24,191 nt of DNA. Source: an uncultured Planctomycetales bacterium. GTDB taxonomy: Bacteria > Planctomycetota > Phycisphaerae > UBA1845 > JAFGLZ01. Positions 5,161 through 22,400 of this stretch are shown here, in pieces; the stretch's first letter is position 1, and every line of letters starts with the position of its first letter. The position numbers and the translations under genes are program-made. The notes under the pieces were generated by a model. It was given only the letters and a program-made list of their open reading frames with translations, made no database searches and was not told the origin of the DNA. The stretch lies in assembly GCA_964403235.1 (NCBI GenBank), contig CAYOGX010000001.1:1-24191 (forward strand), written 5' to 3'.

Positions 5161-5641
5161 ACAGGTTCCATTGGGACCGGGCCCTGTGGGGTGGGTTCGC
5201 TCAGCCAACATGGGATCAATGCGCCCCTCCCGTCGTCATTGGCGCATGGCGACTCGACCGGGCCAAACCTGAACCCGACGGTAATCGCGGAGGCGAAGCT
5301 CGAATCCTAGCAGGGGTCGGGGGGCGGAGCAGTACGACGGGGCGGAGCGGCAATGATCTGCGCGGCCGACCCTTCTCGCTGTGATTCGCTGGCCTACGAT
5401 CAGCTTGGGTAGCCCACTGGGATGCTCGGTGATTCACGTTGCTTTGGCCCGTTCCTTCAAATCCTAGGAGACCCTGGTGGGGGCTTGGGGGCGTTTTGGG
5501 CGGCTTCAGCGTCCGCGGCTGCGTCGTCGGCGAGGGTAACGCTGGGGGGAGGGAGGTGAGAACCCATACATCCGTGGCGCGGGGGGTTTGGGCCTGTCCC
5601 GGTACGTTAAGGCGGCTGCGCATTCAGTCGATATTGGAGAC

Positions 5642-6430
5642 ATGGGACGAGGTTATTTGGTACCGCGCATCATCACCGCGTTTGGCGTCAGGGTGCGCTG
5701 CGCAGGGGAGGACGGCTTCGTCCCCGCTTGGCCGATTAACCTCAGCGAGACGGGGGCCTGTCTGCGGCTTCGTCGCGAGGTTTCGGTCGGTCAGCCGATC
5801 CGACTGGAGATAGAGCTGACCGATGAGGCGGATGTGATGGAGGTCGGCGGACGGATTGCATGGGTGCGTGACGACCACGGCAACGGGATGCTTTATTGCG
5901 GGGTGGGCTTCACGGATCTGACCGATGATCAGTTGCAGCAGATCAGAAGCTATGTCGAAATGGGGGCCCGATGGCTGCTGAAGTTCCTCTTCGAGTTCCC
6001 GCTTTTCAAGGAATTCTCCTACGACGACTGCCGGTCGCTGCTGAGAATCGTCACGCTGCGCGAGCTACAGAGGAAGGAAATCCTGTATCACAAGGACACC
6101 CGCGATGCGAACCTGCAAGGGCTGTTCATTGTGCACTCGGGCTTGTTGAGCATTTTCGACGGTCACAAGCCGCGCCCGGAACGCCACCTGGCGGTGGTTT
6201 CCGCAGGGCAGCTATTCGGCGAGACCACGCTGGTAGACGATCAGCCGCATTCGGCTACTGTCATGGCGGTCAATCCCTCTCGGTTGATCCAGGTGAACAA
6301 GATGGGCTACCTGCTGCTGCGCGAAGAGGAGCCCCAACTGGCCCTGAAGATCATGGACGTGGTGGCTCGGGCGCTGGCGGGCCGGTTGGGCCGAACCACC
6401 AGGAGGCTCTTCAGTCCGGTGCGGTTCTGA
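5642..6430 (+). CDS. PilZ domain + cyclic-nucleotide-binding (CAP_ED) domain protein without HTH, ~262 aa; exact start uncertain
   Basis: PilZ second motif NLSETG followed by IRLEIEL...GRIAWVR...GVGF. cNMP domain LFKEFS...LFIVHSG...GQLFGETTLVDDQPHSATVMA. Confidence 0.85.
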   Translation: MGRGYLVPRIITAFGVRVRCAGEDGFVPAWPINLSETGACLRLRREVSVGQPIRLEIELTDEADVMEVGGRIAWVRDDHGNGMLYCGVGFTDLTDDQLQQIRSYVEMGARWLLKFLFEFPLFKEFSYDDCRSLLRIVTLRELQRKEILYHKDTRDANLQGLFIVHSGLLSIFDGHKPRPERHLAVVSAGQLFGETTLVDDQPHSATVMAVNPSRLIQVNKMGYLLLREEEPQLALKIMDVVARALAGRLGRTTRRLFSPVRF

Positions 6431-11686: not shown

Positions 11687-13123
11687 CTACATCGCGTCCA
11701 ACAGGGCCTCGAACCGGGCGGCGACGTTCCGCAGGTCGCCGGTCCGTGCGTTGGGTGTGGTCAGCACCATTGGACCACCGAAGCTGGCGCAGCGGAGGAT
11801 GGAGATCATCTCCTTGACCTCGGCGTTGCCGTGGGCCAGCGGCTGTACGACACCGTCGTTGCAGGCGTCCTCGACGTCGAGCTGGTCGACGAATCGCCGG
11901 AGCTTCTGTTTGTAGCTGTAAAGGAACGGTGCCTCGCCGGCCCGCGCGAAGTTCGCGCCGTTGAACGTGAACCCCACGTCGGCGCCGGTCTCACGCAGCG
12001 CCAGCAGCATCCGCGACGCCATCAGGCTGCCCTGGACGCCGTTGTACAGGGAAAGCCTCAACCCGCGCTCTGACGCGAGGGTCGCGTGCTCCTGTGCTTC
12101 GGCCGACAGGGGCAGCACGATCCGGTCGACCTGGTTGTCGACGGCAGCGTCCATGAATCGGGCCACCGACTCGGGAACCGACGCGCACCGCAATGCGGTC
12201 ACGTGGCATTCGCCCTTGCGGAGGGCCTGCACCGTCGTCCGCAGGTCGTCGGCGGCGAGCCTGTGGACGGGTCGGCCCTGGACGAGGTCCAGCTCGATGT
12301 GGCCGACGCCGCTTGCCCGGAGGTTCTCAATCATCTCCGGCACGTACCGGCCCGCCAGGCCGCTGGCCGCGACTACCGTGAACGCCTCGCGGCCGAATCG
12401 CTCGCGCCGGAGCGCCGCGCGCTGGGCGACGCAATCGGCGCAGTTGGGATTCTCGCACAACACGAAGGCGGGATCGGCGCGGCCCGCCTCCAGACAGACG
12501 TCGATCAGGTCTTGGCTCTTCATCAGCCGGACAACCGAGCTGCCGATCCGCCCAACCCGCAGCACGCCCTTCTCGCGCAACAGCGGGTCCAGGCCCACGA
12601 AGTCCCGGTGCGGGCCGGGGAACCGTCGGATCGTCCGGGTGACCTCGCCCTCGTCGGTCATGAAGGTCTTGGTCCGGTCGGTCAAGTAGGGCGGTTGGAG
12701 CATTTCCTCCGCCGTGTGTAGCGTCGTGCTGCGGTCCTGGTCCACGCCGAGTAGACAGACGTACCCGCCGCGTTCGGCGATGCGCATGTAGGGCGTGTCT
12801 TCGGCGTGTGCGGTTTCGGCCTTCCAGTGGTCTTTGCAGAGCGCCTCGGCGGCCGCGCCGATGGCGGCCACGCTGGCCAGAGGATGGACGCTCCGCACCG
12901 ACCGCGGGTCGTCGCGGACCGCCTCCGTGATGACGCCCAGCGCGCCGAACGTCGGCACGACCAACGTTCCCCGTTCGCCCAGCACGGACAGGAACGCGTC
13001 GACGACGGTCCGCGCGCCGCCCTCGACGAAGCCAAGACTGGACAGCGAGCTGTGGAGCAACACGACGTCGCCTTCGCGGAGCCCCAGGTCGCGCAGTCCT
13101 CGTTCGATCTGATCCCGCGTCAT
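11687..13123 (-). CDS. AAC(3)/Antibiotic_NAT-family N-acetyltransferase fused to a C-terminal xylose-isomerase-like (AP endonuclease 2) TIM barrel, 478 aa
   Basis: ATG at 13123 with GAGGG upstream. GDVVLLHSSLSSLG, GTLVVPTF, RSVHPLASVAAIG and LLGVDQDRSTTLHTAEE are AAC(3) motifs. After residue ~243 come GVGHIELD...HVTAL...VGFTFNGANF...PLAHGNAEVKEMISIL, which fit an AP_endonuc_2-type barrel. Confidence 0.85.
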   Translation of the reverse strand: MTRDQIERGLRDLGLREGDVVLLHSSLSSLGFVEGGARTVVDAFLSVLGERGTLVVPTFGALGVITEAVRDDPRSVRSVHPLASVAAIGAAAEALCKDHWKAETAHAEDTPYMRIAERGGYVCLLGVDQDRSTTLHTAEEMLQPPYLTDRTKTFMTDEGEVTRTIRRFPGPHRDFVGLDPLLREKGVLRVGRIGSSVVRLMKSQDLIDVCLEAGRADPAFVLCENPNCADCVAQRAALRRERFGREAFTVVAASGLAGRYVPEMIENLRASGVGHIELDLVQGRPVHRLAADDLRTTVQALRKGECHVTALRCASVPESVARFMDAAVDNQVDRIVLPLSAEAQEHATLASERGLRLSLYNGVQGSLMASRMLLALRETGADVGFTFNGANFARAGEAPFLYSYKQKLRRFVDQLDVEDACNDGVVQPLAHGNAEVKEMISILRCASFGGPMVLTTPNARTGDLRNVAARFEALLDAM

Positions 13124-13216
13124 TCGCGGCCCTCGGTGAAGACGTGGCCCTTGGGCCTCGTCGACGGACCACAAGTAACATCCGCAACGCGTGTTCGTCA
13201 ACCGCTTGGGTGTCCT

Positions 13217-13233
13217 TCGGCATCGCACTTGCT
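13217..13233 (+). promoter_or_regulatory. Candidate sigma54 (-24/-12) promoter upstream of the GT87-like gene
   Basis: TCGGCATCGCACTTGCT has GG-N10-GC spacing with a perfect TTGCT -12 element. Confidence 0.35.
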
Positions 13234-13393
13234 CCGTGGTTTGTTGAAAGCTATAACCCCGTGCAAGCAGAGGCAGGCGGTGCCTGCCGCGTCCTACCCG
13301 AAGGGCCGGCCAACCGTGCCGGCAGACCAGTTGCCGGGTCGGTGCGTTGGCGTGTCACGGAATTCGACGGCTGCAATGGGCGATCGCGAAGAC

Positions 13394-14719
13394 ATGTCGC
13401 AAAAGGCGGTCGGCGAGAATCGCGCTTCGACGGGGCCATCGGGCCTCCCTCGTCAGCGTTGGATCAAGGTCGTCGTCGCGGTATCGCTCGTGGGCTTCTG
13501 CGCCGTGAACACCCGCAATTTCGTCAAGAAGGTGAACGCCGGGAAGTCCACGCTGAAGATCTGGTTGCCGTGTGCGGCCGAGATCGGGCGCGACGAGCTT
13601 CTGTACACCCACCACCGGAACTACATCTATCCGCCCTGGTACTTGGTCGTGATCCGCCCGTTGACGTACGTGTCGAGAACGGCGGCGGCCATCATCTGGC
13701 AGATGATGAAGTACGCGGCGGTGGGGGCGATCTTCTGGTTGGTTTGGGACCTGCTGTCGCGGGACGGGCCGCTGCCGACGTGGGCGAAGCTCGGTTCGGT
13801 CGTCATGAGCGCGCGGTTCATCCTCAACGATCTGGGGCACGGCAACGTCAACCTGTTTATCTGTCTGCTGGTGGTTTTGGCGGTGTGGCTGTTGGCGCGG
13901 GGGCGGTTGATTGCCTGTGGGGTTGCGGTGGCGGTAGCCGCGTGCATCAAGATCACGCCCGCCTTGTGGGCCGTGTACCTGTTGTACAAGCGGCAGTGGC
14001 GAGCGCTGGTGGGGGTCGTGATCGGTGTCGTGATCTGTCTGGAGCTCGTACCGCTCATGCTCCTGTCGCCGGCGATGAACCACGCGTTGCTGCGGCGCTG
14101 GTACGCGCACGTGATCACTCCTTACGTGTCGAAGGGACAGGTCTACTCGACCCGAATCAACCAGTCGATGGCGGGGGTGACGAATCGCCTGTTGGGTCGG
14201 AGCGAATGGGCGCCGCGCGACGAGCCGATCGCGCTGGTCGATCTGGACGATGAGACCCTCAAGTGGGTCCAGCGCGGGATTGGGTTCGCCGTGATCGCGA
14301 TGTTGGCGTGGTTCTGTCGAGGGGCATTGCCCGAGCCGGACCGGTTGGCGTTGGCGGTCGAGTGGTCGCTGGTGGCCGCAACGACGCTCGTCCTGTCGGG
14401 GTACACGTGGACGGGTCATTTCTGTCTGCTCATCCTCGCCCACGTGGCGGTGTTGGCGTATCTGGCGAGGCGTGGGGAGCAACGTATCGACCGGCAGGTC
14501 CTGGTCCTGACGATCATTGCCTTGGCGCTGTGCTCGTTGACCAGCGATCTGATCACGCCTGCGGGCCGGCGATGGGCGGCCGCGGTCGGTCTGATGCTCT
14601 ACGGTGTACTGGCGCTGGCGGCCGCGCTGGTGTTGATCCGCGAGCGCCGTCGTCCCTCGGCAGTGGCGCGTGACAGCACCCATTCGCGTTCGGGACGCGG
14701 GGGCTCGGAAGGGCGTTGA
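13394..14719 (+). CDS. Glycosyltransferase family 87 / DUF2029 multi-pass membrane protein; start could be 13376
   Basis: YIYPPWYLVVIRPL, GNVNLFICLLVVL, AACIKITPALW and NQSMAG motifs, with many hydrophobic helices. The ORF-track extension to 12806 overlaps the opposite-strand gene and is not credible. Confidence 0.85.
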   Translation: MSQKAVGENRASTGPSGLPRQRWIKVVVAVSLVGFCAVNTRNFVKKVNAGKSTLKIWLPCAAEIGRDELLYTHHRNYIYPPWYLVVIRPLTYVSRTAAAIIWQMMKYAAVGAIFWLVWDLLSRDGPLPTWAKLGSVVMSARFILNDLGHGNVNLFICLLVVLAVWLLARGRLIACGVAVAVAACIKITPALWAVYLLYKRQWRALVGVVIGVVICLELVPLMLLSPAMNHALLRRWYAHVITPYVSKGQVYSTRINQSMAGVTNRLLGRSEWAPRDEPIALVDLDDETLKWVQRGIGFAVIAMLAWFCRGALPEPDRLALAVEWSLVAATTLVLSGYTWTGHFCLLILAHVAVLAYLARRGEQRIDRQVLVLTIIALALCSLTSDLITPAGRRWAAAVGLMLYGVLALAAALVLIRERRRPSAVARDSTHSRSGRGGSEGR

Positions 14720-14726
14720 CGGCGGG

Positions 14727-15224
14727 CTACGTCGGCCTTCGGGGATCATGGTTGGCATGCTCGTCCAGCCACTCTTGTAGCATGTCGGCCTTGGCGGTCC
14801 TGCCGAGCCTGCGATAGGCCTGGCATTCGTATTCCAGCGACAGAACGGGGACGGCCAATCCATCGAGGTCGACGAAACGGCGGTGCTCGGACACGTCGAC
14901 GCGGTCTTCCCATTTCCCATCCGGGAGGCGTTTCTGAATCGCCCCCATGATTTCGACGCTCACGCCATCGATGCACAACTCGCCGAAATGGGAACGGATC
15001 GTCTCGGTGGACGAGAACTGGACCTTTCGAACGACGTGATCCGAGAAGCAGCGCTCGATCTCGTACGCGCCCGGTTCGTCGGTTTGGATGTCGATGTCAT
15101 GGACCGCCACTTCAACGCCCTGGAGCGCCTGGCCGAGGCTGCCAGTAACCGCCCAGGTCGTCTCAGTGCCGCTCAGGTGGGAACAGATGCATCCAACAAC
15201 GTCAATGAAGCGCGGGTCGATCAT
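14727..15224 (-). CDS. Small nucleotidyltransferase-superfamily protein (Pol-beta-like GS + DxD), 165 aa
   Basis: WAVTGSLGQALQG...HDIDIQTD (hG[GS] motif plus DxD) and a third acidic residue in VSVEIMG. The start is taken at MIDPRF. Confidence 0.75.
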   Translation of the reverse strand: MIDPRFIDVVGCICSHLSGTETTWAVTGSLGQALQGVEVAVHDIDIQTDEPGAYEIERCFSDHVVRKVQFSSTETIRSHFGELCIDGVSVEIMGAIQKRLPDGKWEDRVDVSEHRRFVDLDGLAVPVLSLEYECQAYRRLGRTAKADMLQEWLDEHANHDPRRPT

Positions 15225-15256
15225 CTCGATCCCCGACGACGGCACGACAGGCGGCG

Positions 15257-16264
15257 TCACTTGTCCGGGGCCGCGACGGGGGCGGGTCCGTCCGGGAAGT
15301 CGCGTCGCCATCGCTTGCGAAGCTCGTTGAGCGTTCCGGCGAACCAATAGATCTTTCCGCGGACGGCCCGCTTGGCGTTCGGCGGTATGGGCCCGACGTT
15401 TACGATGCTGTGCAGGCAGTCGGCCGGGTGATGGTCACTCACGTGGGACGTTCGCTGCCAGTAGATGCCGCAGACCCAGGTCCGCTCCCTGTTCGTTCGC
15501 GTGACCAGGCCGTTGTCGATCTGCTCGAGCATGCGGGCCTTGTAGGGTCCGACGGTGAGCATCGCTGCCAGGTCCCCACCGCTGCGCTCGGTGTCGACGC
15601 GGACGCCAAGGGGCGTCCGCGCGCCGACGGGCGATGACGTGGCCGGCAGGGCCTGCCACGTGCGTTTTCGAAGCACGTATGTGAGGCTCGTCTTGGCGGG
15701 CTTGTCCTTTTCGTGTCGCCGCCACAGATCGTATTCGCTGAAGGCGGGTGTCTGGGCGATGGTCCGCCGCCAGGCGGCGTTCGTCGTGCCGCTCATTCGG
15801 AAGCACTGCTGGATGCCGTAGTAAGCATTGAGCCCGGCCTGGTCGGTCTGAACGACGAGGAGCAGATCGATGCCGTCAGCCACGGGCGCCATGTAGAACG
15901 TCCATTGCTGCGGCACCCAGCCCTTGTCATCCACGCGAAGCTCGTTCTTCAGCACGCCCGGTCGCTTGCCGAAACGCCGCTCGAGCTCGGCCATCTCGGC
16001 GGGATCGATCCCTGCCCGCTCATTGTCGTCGGGCACCTGGCCGTGCACGATCGGCGTGTGTTCGTGGAATCGGTACCCGATCCGGTTGTCGGGATGGCGC
16101 CGGTTGGTGAACGTGGCGAAGCCGTTGCCCCTGGCGAGCTTGGCCATGATCGGTGAGTCAGCGGACATGTTGGCACCCGATGCCGATCCCCACGCGCACG
16201 TCGTCAGCAGCGCAACCAGCGGGACGGTGCGGTGGCGAAGGGGACGTTCATTGTGTTCGCCCAT
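15257..16264 (-). CDS. Uncharacterised exported protein, 335 aa
   Basis: GAGG RBS, signal-like RTVPLVALLTTCAWGSASGA, GC3-biased codons and a beta-rich composition. No family recognised with confidence. Confidence 0.7.
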   Translation of the reverse strand: MGEHNERPLRHRTVPLVALLTTCAWGSASGANMSADSPIMAKLARGNGFATFTNRRHPDNRIGYRFHEHTPIVHGQVPDDNERAGIDPAEMAELERRFGKRPGVLKNELRVDDKGWVPQQWTFYMAPVADGIDLLLVVQTDQAGLNAYYGIQQCFRMSGTTNAAWRRTIAQTPAFSEYDLWRRHEKDKPAKTSLTYVLRKRTWQALPATSSPVGARTPLGVRVDTERSGGDLAAMLTVGPYKARMLEQIDNGLVTRTNRERTWVCGIYWQRTSHVSDHHPADCLHSIVNVGPIPPNAKRAVRGKIYWFAGTLNELRKRWRRDFPDGPAPVAAPDK

Positions 16265-19588: not shown

Positions 19589-20836
19589 ATGTCCGCAGAC
19601 AAGAGCGTCCGCACCATGAGCCGACGAACCGCGATTCGCGGCATGCTGGTCGGGACGGCCGGTGTCGTCGGGATGGCCCGGCCCGGGTTTGGGGCCAAAG
19701 GGTCCCCATCCAAAGGAGGTGTTCGAGTGGGGCGCGAATCGAACGGATCGGAGGTCTGGCAGGTCACCACCGAGAAATACAACCATTCGAACATCTACTG
19801 TGAGATGCCCTATTGCTCGGCCGATTCAAGGTACTTCGTCTATGAACGCCGGAACCCGAAGCTGCCCGGCAAGAACAAGGTCGAGTTCATGGTGGTCGAG
19901 CTGGGTACGTGGAAGCAGCATCGACTCGACGCGACCGTCGGGCTCGTGGGCTGTGCCATCACGCACGACGGGGTGTTCTGCTACCTCAAACAGGTCGGAA
20001 AGGACGCGTTCGACCTGATGCGCGTCGACCTGGCGAAGGGCCGCCCGGAGCAGATCCACCGTATCGAGGGCGAAGAGCGACCCAGGAGCTTCGGGGCCGT
20101 GACGCCCGACGGCCGATACTACCTGACCGGCAAGAAGATCGGCGACGACTACCAGATGTTCGGCATCCTACTGGTCGACCTGAAGACCGGCCGACAGTCC
20201 ATCCTCGACCGCGACCCGTTCATCCTCAACCCCCACCCCCAGATCGAGCCGGGCGAGGGCAAGCAGCTCATGATCCAGCACAACCGCGGCGGGAAGTACA
20301 CGCCCGACGGCAAGCGTCTGCGGCTCGTCGGGCCCGAGGGCGCGACGCTCTACCTCGCCTCCGTGCCGGACGGCAAGCGGACTCTCCTGCAGGTCGGCAA
20401 ACCCTACACGACGCCCTGTACGGGCCATGAGGCCTGGATCGGCAAGACCAAGGAGATCCTCTTGACGGTCGCGCCGAGCGGGGAGTTCGCGCCGGACAAG
20501 GGGAACCTGCTCGGCGTTCGTGCGGGCCAACCCGCCCGCGTCGTCGCTCGGGGGTACCACTTCGGGCACGTCGGCGCGTCCCGATGCGGCCGGTTCTTCT
20601 CCTGCGACGACTGGCGGGAAACCTACAAGGTCGTCATCGGCTCGATCCGAACCGGCAAGACGGCGGTGGTCTGCGAATCCCGGACGAAGCCGGGCCGTTC
20701 GCAAAACACCCACCCGCACCCCTACCTGACGCCCGACCTGAAGTGGGTGATCTTCAACTCGAACCGGAGCGGGTTTCCCCATGTCCACGCGGCGAGCGTA
20801 CCGGCCGGGATGATCGAGGAGTTGGGCCAAACCTAG
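19589..20836 (+). CDS. Tat-exported oligogalacturonate lyase (PL22)-like beta-propeller, paralogue 2, 415 aa
   Basis: GGAG RBS at 19577-19580; SRRTAIRGMLVG signal; CTGHEAW, GHVG and QNTHPHPYLTPD motifs; clear protein- and DNA-level similarity to 16414-17691. Confidence 0.8.
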   Translation: MSADKSVRTMSRRTAIRGMLVGTAGVVGMARPGFGAKGSPSKGGVRVGRESNGSEVWQVTTEKYNHSNIYCEMPYCSADSRYFVYERRNPKLPGKNKVEFMVVELGTWKQHRLDATVGLVGCAITHDGVFCYLKQVGKDAFDLMRVDLAKGRPEQIHRIEGEERPRSFGAVTPDGRYYLTGKKIGDDYQMFGILLVDLKTGRQSILDRDPFILNPHPQIEPGEGKQLMIQHNRGGKYTPDGKRLRLVGPEGATLYLASVPDGKRTLLQVGKPYTTPCTGHEAWIGKTKEILLTVAPSGEFAPDKGNLLGVRAGQPARVVARGYHFGHVGASRCGRFFSCDDWRETYKVVIGSIRTGKTAVVCESRTKPGRSQNTHPHPYLTPDLKWVIFNSNRSGFPHVHAASVPAGMIEELGQT

Positions 20837-20963: not shown

Positions 20964-21053
20964 GGAGGTTGAGGGGGTGGTCCTTCAAAGCGAAGGTCCA
21001 ATCCCACCCTCACATCTCCTAATAGGGGCTGACTCCGCGGGCCGGTGGCCCGC
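20964..21053 (+). other. Stacked stem-loops in the putative 5' leader of the KamA-family gene
   Basis: Outer stem GGAGGTTGAGGG / CCCTCACATCTCC; inner TGG.CCTTC-AAAGC-GAAGG.CCA; second hairpin GCGGGCC-GGT-GGCCCGC (21037-21053). Confidence 0.4.
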
Positions 21054-21081
21054 CGGGACCTGATGTACGGAGGCCCGGACC

Positions 21082-22185
21082 ATGCGATGGCAAGACGAGA
21101 TCAAAAACAGCATCACCACGCTCGATCAATTGAGCGAATACGCCAAGTTGCCCTTGGACGAGGACAAGCGCCTGCGACGGGTCGCCAAACGGCATCCGAT
21201 GGCCATGACCCGCTACTACGCGTCGCTGATCGACTGGACCGATCCGGACGACCCGATTCGTCGGATGGCCGTCCCATGCGTGGAGGAACTGAACGTCGCC
21301 GGGACGTACGACACGAGCGGCGAGGCGAGCAACACGAAGATGCCCGGCCTTCAGCACAAGTACGCGCAGACCGCGCTGATCCTCGCGACCAACCGATGCG
21401 CGATGTACTGCCGGCATTGCTTCAGGAAGCGATTGGTCGGCCTGACGAACGAGGAGATCCTGAGCCGGTTCGGTGAGGCGGTGGCGTATGTCAAGCGGCA
21501 CAACGAGATCAACAACGTGCTCATCAGCGGCGGTGATCCGCTCATCCTGCCGACCCGAGTGATTCGCGAGTTCCTCCGAAGGCTGTCGCCCATTGCCCAT
21601 CTGTGCTTCATCAGGCTGGGCAGCAGAACGCCCGTCACGTTCCCCCAGCGGATCTACGGCGACAGGGAGCTGCTGGCCGTGCTGAAGCGGTACTCCGCCG
21701 GTGACAAGCGGCTGTTCCTGGTCACACAGTTCAACCATCCCCGGGAGATCACCGAGCAGTCGACCAGGGCTGTCAGCCGGCTGATCGAGGCCGGCGTGGT
21801 CCTCAACAATCAGACCGTTCTGCTGAGCGGCGTGAACGACGATCCGGATACGCTGGCGGAATTGCAGAACAGACTGGTGGGCATCGGTGTCAATCCGTAC
21901 TACGTCTTCCAGTGCAGGCCCGTCAAGCGCGTGAAGCATTGCTACCAGGTGCCGTTCCGCCGTGGTTACGAGGCGGTGGAAAAGGCCAAGCGGCAGCTCA
22001 ACGGCCACAGCAAGCGGTTCCGCTATGCGATGTCGCACAAGACGGGCAAGATCGAGATCGTGGGGATCATGGGCAACGACATTTACCTCAAGTACTTCCA
22101 GGCCAAGAGCCCGAAGAACGTCGGCCGGTTTTTCAAGCGACGACTGACCGACAACGCGGCCTGGTTGGATGACTTGGGACCGTGA
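21082..22185 (+). CDS. KamA-family radical SAM, PLP-dependent aminomutase homologue (substrate probably not lysine)
   Basis: GGAGG RBS; GLQHKY, CAMYCRHCFRKR (CxxxCxxC), ISGGDPL, RLGSRTPVTFPQRI, TQFNHPRE, NQTVLL, PYYVFQC, and the PLP Lys in TGKIE. Confidence 0.9.
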   Translation: MRWQDEIKNSITTLDQLSEYAKLPLDEDKRLRRVAKRHPMAMTRYYASLIDWTDPDDPIRRMAVPCVEELNVAGTYDTSGEASNTKMPGLQHKYAQTALILATNRCAMYCRHCFRKRLVGLTNEEILSRFGEAVAYVKRHNEINNVLISGGDPLILPTRVIREFLRRLSPIAHLCFIRLGSRTPVTFPQRIYGDRELLAVLKRYSAGDKRLFLVTQFNHPREITEQSTRAVSRLIEAGVVLNNQTVLLSGVNDDPDTLAELQNRLVGIGVNPYYVFQCRPVKRVKHCYQVPFRRGYEAVEKAKRQLNGHSKRFRYAMSHKTGKIEIVGIMGNDIYLKYFQAKSPKNVGRFFKRRLTDNAAWLDDLGP

Positions 22186-22294
22186 GCCAAGCCGCCAGCA
22201 ACACCGGGGATCACGGTCGAAGCAGCGGAAGTCCTTTCGATCAAGGATGCATCCGGGCGAGACCACGATCGCTCGATTGCGGGATTTCCGTGCT

Positions 22295-22322
22295 TTGTTT
22301 TGCGGCCGACGCCCGCTAGAAT
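22295..22322 (+). promoter_or_regulatory. Candidate sigma70 promoter for the MFS gene
   Basis: TTGTTT-16 nt-TAGAAT, about 80 nt upstream of the ATG. Confidence 0.35.
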
Positions 22323-22400
22323 GCCCGCCTGTTCGTACCACCTGACAGTCAAGTAGGGCCGGCTGTGCCGACCGCTTCCTGACAACGTAGGAGGTGTTTG

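Follow-up and report, generated by a model that had tools for sequence, protein, structure and literature searches.

The KamA-like gene and its sequence features

A gene at positions 21082 to 22185 of a 24,191-nucleotide (nt) stretch of DNA from an uncultured Planctomycetales bacterium (contig CAYOGX010000001.1 of assembly GCA_964403235.1; the whole stretch is referred to as the window) was the focus of this study. It encodes a protein of the KamA family of radical S-adenosylmethionine (SAM)/pyridoxal 5'-phosphate (PLP) enzymes, to which lysine 2,3-aminomutase (LAM) belongs, and an earlier note, made from the letters alone, had proposed that Arg in the place of a lysine-binding Asp marks a different aminomutase. 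The coordinates given there were all exact: the open reading frame (ORF), the Arg codon of YVFQCR (21916-21918), the MSHKTGK loop (22030-22050), CxxxCxxC, and CFRKR. Judging from the comparisons below, the usual name "lysine 2,3-aminomutase" almost certainly does not apply to this gene, which falls in a deep branch of the family (clade II) that occurs in hundreds of anaerobic species and is separate from that containing LAM (clade I). The features of the gene were as follows.

21069 to 21073, forward strand: GGAGG, a Shine-Dalgarno-like sequence 8 nt 5' of the ATG (read directly from the sequence)
21082 to 22185, forward strand: gene of a KamA-family radical SAM/PLP protein, 367 amino acids, of the clade II Arg/Ser-His short-loop type (ORF with ATG, profile score, and fold)
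21370 to 21372, forward strand: codon of Thr97, a clade II signature at the position of LAM R116 (Thr in 47/53 clade II and Arg in 52/53 clade I representatives)
21397 to 21420, forward strand: CxxxCxxC (C106/C110/C113), predicted [4Fe-4S]/SAM cluster motif
21424 to 21426, forward strand: Arg115 in CFRKR (21418-21432), corresponding to LAM Arg134 (HMMER and L-INS-i alignments)
21529 to 21537, forward strand: GGD (residues 150-152), predicted SAM-binding motif of the family (conservation)
21916 to 21918, forward strand: Arg279 (AGG, in YVFQCR), corresponding to LAM Asp293 (HMMER alignments to 2A5H)
22030 to 22050, forward strand: MSHKTGK, a shortened hairpin loop in which Ser318/His319 occupy the position of LAM Asp330 and Lys323 corresponds to K337 (L-INS-i alignment)
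22162 to 22173, forward strand: WLDD, a C-terminal motif starting at W361 and specific to clade II (Trp in 47/53 clade II representatives; column missing from clade I)
22278 to 22302, forward strand: weak terminator-like hairpin with a T-rich tail, between the KamA-like gene and the downstream MFS gene

The N-terminus of the 367-residue protein fitted the M-x-W-x-x-E-L start of its homologues in an alignment of 25 diverse members.

Family membership and fold

The generic KamA model (TIGR00238) was the only NCBIfam model passed by the protein: 245.1 bits against a cutoff of 199.2. It stayed below the cutoff of every equivalog model: 257.5 bits (cutoff 650) for TIGR04368 (glutamate 2,3-aminomutase, Eam), which scored highest among them, 252.9 bits (cutoff 525.4) for TIGR03820 (the lysine 2,3-aminomutase AblA), 242.4 bits (cutoff 600) for TIGR04468 (arginine 2,3-aminomutase), and 204 bits (cutoff 369.3) for TIGR03821 (EpmB). 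The only relative with a solved structure was LAM from Clostridium subterminale (PDB 2A5H), which was matched by HMMER with E=5.5e-71 using the single sequence and 8e-84 using a profile, and showed 36% identity across the whole alignment. When an AlphaFold2 model of the protein (pLDDT 84, pTM 0.87) was compared using Foldseek, 2A5H was found with E=4e-30 and a TM-score of 0.79 over 368 columns; other matches were generic radical SAM barrels with TM-scores of approximately 0.4. The protein is a member of the KamA family by cutoff, motifs, and fold, and lies outside the LAM/AblA, Eam, EpmB, and BlsG equivalog families, whose cutoffs it does not reach and whose defining residues it does not carry.

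Active-site residues compared with LAM

The sequence and numbering of LAM were checked against 2A5H (100% over 416 residues). In LAM, D293 and D330 are reported to be the ligands of the ε-ammonium group, R134 the ligand of the α-carboxylate, and K337 the PLP lysine, and glutamate 2,3-aminomutase is reported to carry a Lys/Asn pair at the positions of D293 and D330 (Lepore et al. 2005; Ruzicka & Frey 2007). HMMER alignments to 2A5H paired R279 with D293. Since both the pairwise and the profile alignments ended at query residue 309, short of D330/K337, a multiple alignment of 118 near-full-length domains by L-INS-i was required for this region, and it paired R115 with R134, R279 with D293, S318 with D330, H319 with A331, G322 with G336, and K323 with K337. 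The loop, counted from Phe to the residue past Lys, consisted of 12 residues in the query and 14 in LAM, and was a tight β-hairpin in the AlphaFold2 model (strand 314-319, turn 320-321, and strand 322-330). The previously described loss of Asp from a shortened loop therefore stood, and could be refined to a conserved Ser-His pair at the D330 site. The ε-amine site was occupied by R279 and S318/H319 in the alignments. The putative anionic or non-basic substrate that had been suggested is consistent with the evidence gathered here.

The catalytic residues were retained, again as had been claimed. CxxxCxxC, R115, and GGD were invariant in the 25 diverse members, and among the 118 representatives Cys was found in 112-115, Arg at the R115 column in 114, and GGD in 111-117. 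K323, assigned as the PLP lysine by alignment only, was Lys in 106 of the 118 and, together with R279, H319, and G322, invariant in the 25 members; the same was true of W361, L362, and D363 in the C-terminal tail. Among 210 orthologues, 207 carried [QH][CY]RP, namely Arg279, and the remaining three were fragments. Given this conservation, the Arg/Ser-His substitution is far beyond chance.

Two deep clades and a putative specificity pocket

HMMER was run exhaustively against 1.84 billion representatives and detected 5109 relatives, and a neighbor-joining tree was built from 118 near-complete domains. The tree, a phylogeny that the earlier note had called for, divided into two deep clades, and the query was located outside clade I, which contains LAM and Eam-like proteins. 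Clade I had a long Gly-rich loop, and at least 48 of its representatives carried Asp at position 293; in addition to LAM, it held two Eam-like Lys/Asn proteins, P0196 and P0197, the latter of which scored 556 bits (cutoff 650) on the glutamate model TIGR04368. Clade II, the deep sister of the LAM/Eam clade, had a short loop and, at the 293 position, Arg in 41/53 representatives, Met in six, Lys in three, and other residues in the rest. The query orthogroup formed a tight cluster within it. Nine further clade II representatives were all below every equivalog cutoff of NCBIfam, and no characterized member of this clade was found in NCBIfam, PDB, or the searched literature. These comparisons suggest that clade II, approximately half of the sampled KamA diversity, is a distinct and uncharacterized branch. 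The view that the protein belongs to an uncharacterized subfamily and differs from LAM was supported by every comparison, including failure on all equivalog models, passage of the generic KamA model only, and placement in a separate deep clade whose hallmarks are the features that had been noted.

The glutamate 2,3-aminomutase of methanogens reportedly has an N-terminal extension of approximately 160 residues and Eam-like residues. This architecture was found in none of the clade II representatives of the 118-domain set, and no Methanococcales appeared among the best 80 loci of a genome scan with K/N-type queries.

Residues 279/318/319 co-varied within clade II, as (R,S,H) in the majority and as (R,S,T), (K,S,N), and (M,P,H/C/T), and T97, K311, G322, and K323 were constant across these pocket variants. 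In this comparison, 279/318/319 behave as specificity determinants because they co-vary while T97 and K311 stay constant. The (K,S,N) variant of clade II repeats the Lys/Asn pair of the clade I proteins P0196 and P0197, and by this analogy supports a cationic, hydrogen-bonding pocket for an anionic group. The idea that R279 is simply the relocated Arg of clade I (LAM R116) was rejected since Met- and Lys-type members of clade II keep T97 without any Arg. TIGR04468, the only equivalog model that aligned through the query loop, had raised the concern that clade II holds arginine aminomutases of the BlsG type, which would have weakened the argument from Arg to an anionic substrate; this was also rejected because the model scored the clade I protein P0197 (346) above any clade II protein (146-242; 146-213 for the representatives other than the query).

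A 2,3-aminomutase for a neutral or non-acidic small amino acid (alanine to β-alanine, glutamine, serine/threonine, methionine, or an N-acylated diamino acid), in which Arg279/His319 fill or polarize the pocket, would fit the same catalytic apparatus and fold. Alanine 2,3-aminomutases have been evolved from LAM in the laboratory by D-to-G or D-to-H changes of an active-site Asp (PMC9850924), the D-to-H change resembles His319, the Met-type pockets of clade II indicate that the scaffold accepts non-charged substrates, and a stand-alone gene (see below) suits any one-step product. On the other hand, an invariant Arg and His would be an odd means merely of shrinking a pocket, the conservative K/N variants retain a cationic/hydrogen-bonding pair, and the linkage of Arg/His paralogues to γ-glutamyltranspeptidase, also described below, points to glutamyl chemistry. 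We consider a neutral substrate unlikely, while giving it some weight.

Distribution in archaea and bacteria

The 210 orthologues showed 49-76% identity and were derived from archaea and bacteria, including DPANN and the candidate phyla radiation (CPR). The closest 120 protein clusters (62-76% identity, approximately 366 residues) also came from both domains: Syntrophoarchaeum, ANME-1, Thermoplasmatota, Halobacteriota, and Micrarchaeota among the archaea, and Omnitrophota, Cloacimonadota, Phycisphaerae, and [Eubacterium] cellulosolvens among the bacteria. In contigs of one genome per species, a relative of the KamA-like gene was encoded by at least 572 species genomes. Archaeal carriers included Bathyarchaeia (one Bathyarchaeota genome of 0.87 Mb), Methanothrix, Thorarchaeota, Micrarchaeota, Pacearchaeota, and Nanohaloarchaeota, and bacterial carriers included Kerfeldbacteria (CPR, 1.3-Mb chromosome), WOR-3, Aquificota, many Clostridia, Spirochaetes, and Acholeplasmataceae. 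The source annotation of orthologue records was often 'lysine 2,3-aminomutase' or 'L-lysine 2,3-aminomutase (EC 5.4.3.2)'.

This distribution bears on two related alternatives. In the first, the orthogroup, the most conserved one of clade II, would make an unrecognized β-amino acid or act on an amino acid carried by a larger anionic molecule, and its product would be needed by strict anaerobes of both domains, the reduced DPANN and CPR lineages included. We regard this as distinctly unlikely; if true, the enzyme would be a missing piece of core anaerobe physiology, not a second glutamate aminomutase. In the second, which we regard as more doubtful still, the protein would act in a housekeeping role in anaerobes on an amino acid that is built into a bigger anionic molecule or bound to it; examples are aminoacyl-tRNAs, nucleotide-linked amino acids, and the ends of proteins or peptides. 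The very high conservation of the sequence between the domains (62-76%), the presence of the gene in reduced DPANN/CPR genomes (Micrarchaeota, Pacearchaeota, Nanohaloarchaeota, and the 1.3-Mb Kerfeldbacteria) and in the 0.87-Mb Bathyarchaeota genome, the extra conserved basic residues K282, R283, K311, and R312, and occasional translation/tRNA neighbors (in Syntrophoarchaeum, arcTGT immediately upstream; in Cloacimonadota, synthetases for His- and Asp-tRNA close by) would fit such a substrate. However, the conservation of R283 and R312 does not extend over the Arg/His clade, no macromolecular partner, ligase, or target gene recurred in 89 loci, retention of the α-carboxylate Arg implies a free carboxylate, and the fusion paralogues described below feed ATP-grasp/nonribosomal peptide synthetase (NRPS) ligases, which use free amino acids.

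Gene neighborhood

The neighbors of the gene in the window were unrelated to it: a GDSL/TPR protein, a Tat-signal β-propeller, a NupG-like MFS transporter, and an Omp85 fragment. The absence of adjacent epmA/efp, ablB, and kamDE, noted earlier for the window, was confirmed and extended: with E. coli epmB-efp as the reference for linkage to elongation factor P (EF-P), none of efp, epmA, ablB, or kamDE was found in the window or as a recurrent partner across the 89 loci. All-against-all clustering of ORFs from these loci gave no conserved neighbor, the largest clusters being antisense shadow ORFs or ABC/response-regulator paralogues, and no conserved partner emerged when Pfam families were counted for 80 partners on the same strand at distances of up to 300 bp (top families: MscS, 4; MgtC, 3; GNAT, 3). 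The KamA-like gene is normally stand-alone. The lack of a conserved partner among the 89 loci and 80 partners fits a one-enzyme pathway. GNAT as a general analogue of AblB was rejected: it accounted for only 3/80 partners, and the two located ones were in Lachnospiraceae with gaps of 173-202 bp.

A true lysine 2,3-aminomutase activity of the protein, which the database names of many orthologues and 36% identity to LAM might suggest, is hardly credible. Both of the lysine-binding Asp residues are missing, and the ε-ammonium group would be repelled by the Arg that occupies the first site; the TIGR03820 score is less than half of its cutoff (252.9 against 525.4 bits); none of the ablB, kamDE, or epmA/efp partners was found in the window or the 89 loci; and a KEGG-curated survey reports no kamA in ANME-1, yet ANME-1 carries a gene of the query type.

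The only tight linkage seen was to a gene for an MscS channel, located 33-48 bp downstream on the same strand in four Bathyarchaeia species, whose channels were 71-77% identical to one another. The positions at these loci are as follows.

L017, 9146 to 10231: Bathyarchaeia KamA-like gene with MscS
L018, 9163 to 10251: Bathyarchaeia KamA-like gene with MscS
L019, 2190 to 3281: Bathyarchaeia KamA-like gene with MscS
L022, 9149 to 10240: Bathyarchaeia KamA-like gene with MscS

A comparable osmolyte operon, ynaI(MscS)-kamA-ablB, has been described in Methanoperedens (PMC11337218).

In Syntrophoarchaeum, an archaeal-type tRNA-guanine transglycosylase (483 residues) was encoded 78 bp upstream on the same strand (L005, 5471-8128; L006, 1811-4468), within a block of radical SAM/Fe-S genes. 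In two Cloacimonadota (L027, 89-3073; L029, 4420-7542), the KamA-like gene was located between an upstream gene for a protein of approximately 434-454 residues (gap of 3 bp) and a downstream gene for a protein of approximately 190-202 residues (gap of 8-26 bp). From their sizes, and because exactly two GARS and two Formyl_trans_N domains were present in the partner census, these flanking genes are probably purD and purN.

Farther upstream in the window were genes for a glycosyl hydrolase-like protein, a BNR protein, a PilZ-cyclic nucleotide monophosphate (cNMP) protein, GT87, and two homologues of aminoglycoside-modifying enzymes. The latter were an AAC(3)-type Antibiotic_NAT protein of 512 residues (11687-13228, reverse strand; E=1.3e-45) and, 1.5 kb away, an ANT(2'')-type nucleotidyltransferase (14727-15347, reverse strand; E=1.7e-26). 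The ORF for the GT87 glycosyltransferase (12806-14719, forward strand) was located between the two and overlapped the AAC(3)-type gene by approximately 420 bp. The protein encoded at 5588-6430 (forward strand) combined PilZ and cyclic-nucleotide-binding domains, and is a possible dual cyclic di-GMP/cNMP receptor.

A promoter scan detected nothing, and a terminator scan found one site against 1.4 expected by chance, its position alone being suggestive. An antisense ORF (21019-22341, reverse strand; 440 residues) was rejected as a separate gene and regarded as a shadow ORF in a region of high GC content (62-65%). Near-identical DNA was present in sediment, seawater, and marine-sediment metagenomes, and the organism itself in marine and estuarine sediment metagenomes. 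In a wetland metatranscriptome, two 151-nt contigs matched positions 21753-21903 and 21927-22077 within the gene with at least 99% identity, which is weak evidence but suggests transcription in situ of this gene or of the copy in a near-identical strain. In one sediment metagenome, contigs were joined across skips at 20458-20651 (192 bp) and 21848-22030 (181 bp), the latter inside the KamA-like gene. Since just 20-24 bases matched on the short side of both, they most likely reflect assembly across chimeric or paralogous sequences and not real deletions.

Fusion paralogues of clade II

Clade II paralogues that have the Arg/His state and share 44-46% identity with the query carried fused domains: an ATP-grasp domain of the Ddl type, an NRPS condensation domain, or AMP-binding and RidA domains. 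These fusions imply a free β-amino acid product that is ligated later. The ATP-grasp fusion was common in Sedimentisphaerales and other Planctomycetota, and an operon for γ-glutamyltranspeptidase (GGT), 7TM_transglut, and the ATP-grasp-KamA fusion was conserved at three independent loci. The operon was located, in Sedimentisphaerales-like Planctomycetota, as follows.

L092/L093, 5468 to 10115: GGT/7TM_transglut/fusion operon
L094, 3477 to 8142: GGT/7TM_transglut/fusion operon
L096, 2177 to 7040: GGT/7TM_transglut/fusion operon
L097, 1795 to 6658: GGT/7TM_transglut/fusion operon

It looks like an uncharacterized system for a β-amino acid/glutamyl peptide. The related 7TM-transglutaminase/ATP-grasp system Rlo is a relative of the glutamate ligase RimK and has been tied to tolerance of osmotic stress (PMC11957051).

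In Mesorhizobium (L091, 10001-21581), an NRPS condensation domain was fused to a clade II KamA domain in a protein of 896 residues, followed by three ATP-grasp genes of the L-amino acid ligase type. Upstream, on the opposite strand, was a methylaspartate ammonia-lyase/mesaconate cluster, which also held genes for a CoA-transferase, an HpcH lyase, and a fumarase. For an aerobe, it is unusual to find an aminomutase of the radical SAM type in a putative peptide gene cluster.

The fusion to RidA, an enamine/imine deaminase, which was found in one paralogue, might indicate that the enzyme uses the KamA scaffold for a radical/PLP reaction other than a 2,3-amino shift (epimerization, elimination/deamination, or C-C chemistry). 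The peculiarities of clade II (T97 in place of R116, the WLDD tail, and the missing C-terminal domain of LAM) are compatible with this, and RadicalSAM.org describes the PLP-dependent cluster as large and functionally diverse (PMC9477430). However, every residue known to be needed for the aminomutase cycle is kept, the nearest characterized relatives are all 2,3-aminomutases, and nothing points positively to any specific alternative; the chance that another reaction is involved appears slim.

Proposed function

We infer that the enzyme uses PLP/SAM chemistry, and a SAM/PLP-dependent 1,2-amino shift is the most economical reading because the catalytic apparatus and the fold of LAM are retained. 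The [4Fe-4S] cluster on C106/C110/C113 would cleave SAM to the 5'-deoxyadenosyl radical, the α-amine of the substrate would form an aldimine with PLP released from Lys323, Arg115 would hold the α-carboxylate, and the amine would migrate from C2 to C3. In the distal pocket, Arg279 and Ser318-His319 would take the place of the lysine-binding aspartates, on a loop shorter by two residues. Since this pocket has been rebuilt, shortened, and made cationic, it would exclude lysine, and the substrate would be a free L-amino acid whose side chain is shorter and acidic, or at any rate not basic. We tentatively prefer a 2,3-aminomutase of an acidic amino acid, a reading that we hold at slightly less than even confidence.

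The most likely single conversion would be that of L-glutamate to β-glutamate. It is favored by the analogy with the K/N pair of Eam and by the γ-glutamyl enzyme in the operons of paralogues, and because a stand-alone gene, together with the MscS linkage and a saline anoxic habitat, fits a one-enzyme route to a solute. β-Glutamate is an established, metabolically static osmolyte (PMC1224877), and in methanogens it is reported to be made by a glutamate 2,3-aminomutase of the KamA family (Tunckanat et al. 2022). As the gene almost always stands alone, the product would probably be used as such, for example as a non-metabolized compatible solute in saline anoxic habitats. Glutamate as the specific substrate is possible, but we regard it as doubtful.

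Several points weigh against an acidic substrate, against glutamate, or against an osmolyte role. The function proposed for clade II is a prediction from sequence, fold, and gene context, and, on the basis of homology with LAM, R279/H319 would point into the pocket. Canonical glutamate 2,3-aminomutases belong to the K/N type of clade I, and in an organism with both enzymes another one for glutamate would be redundant. Cross-domain identity of 62-76% and presence in DPANN/CPR are not usual features of an osmolyte enzyme and are just as compatible with housekeeping. Furthermore, the MscS linkage is restricted to one lineage, in which it could be inherited synteny, and the GGT and ATP-grasp contexts belong to paralogues that are just 44-46% identical to the query.

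The gene is represented in hundreds of species genomes and by thousands of metagenomic proteins. It is often labeled "lysine 2,3-aminomutase", and wrong inferences are inherited from that name: a potential for β-lysine/N-ε-acetyl-β-lysine osmolytes, lysine fermentation, or EF-P modification. The Arg/Ser-His/short-loop signature, together with T97 and the WLDD tail, provides a simple rule that separates clade II from true LAM. A second, non-orthologous glutamate 2,3-aminomutase would explain β-glutamate as a one-gene trait in many anaerobes and offer a new scaffold for β-amino acid biocatalysis, and any other substrate would mean an uncharacterized reaction in a radical SAM family that is among the best studied. 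A ready series for mapping specificity is provided by the natural pocket variants of clade II, namely (R,S,H), (K,S,N), and (M,P,H). We consider the protein to be of moderate-to-good value, both as a target for enzymology and as a case of widespread annotation error.

Comparison with known systems

LAM (KamA) from C. subterminale (2A5H) and methanogen AblA share with the query the fold (TM-score 0.79, 36% identity), CxxxCxxC, GGD, the Arg for the α-carboxylate, and Gly-Lys at the PLP lysine, and presumably the same mechanism of a SAM/PLP-dependent 1,2-amino shift. They differ from it in the distal pocket (D293 to R279, D330 to S318-H319, and a loop shorter by two residues in the query) and at R116, which is T97 in the query. 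The query also has neither the C-terminal domain nor the Cys-rich Zn site of LAM, has Asp in place of LAM C268, possesses the WLDD tail that is found only in its clade, is not accompanied by ablB/kamDE neighbors, and belongs to a separate deep clade.

Eam (Clostridioides difficile; TIGR04368) resembles the query in that both aspartates have been exchanged for a cationic and a hydrogen-bonding residue (Lys/Asn in Eam), and its product, β-glutamate, is a one-enzyme osmolyte. However, Eam has the long Gly loop (NAPGGxGK), R116, and Lys/Asn, whereas the query has Arg/Ser-His and belongs to clade II. EpmB (YjeK) is similarly short (342 residues, compared with 367 in the query) and without the C-terminal domain of LAM, but keeps acidic residues (D and E) at both sites, a long loop (REIGGEPSK), and linkage to efp/epmA. 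Arginine 2,3-aminomutase of the BlsG type is also a KamA-family protein, of approximately 350 residues; the query reached 242 bits against the cutoff of 600 on its model, which favors P0197 of clade I (346) over clade II.

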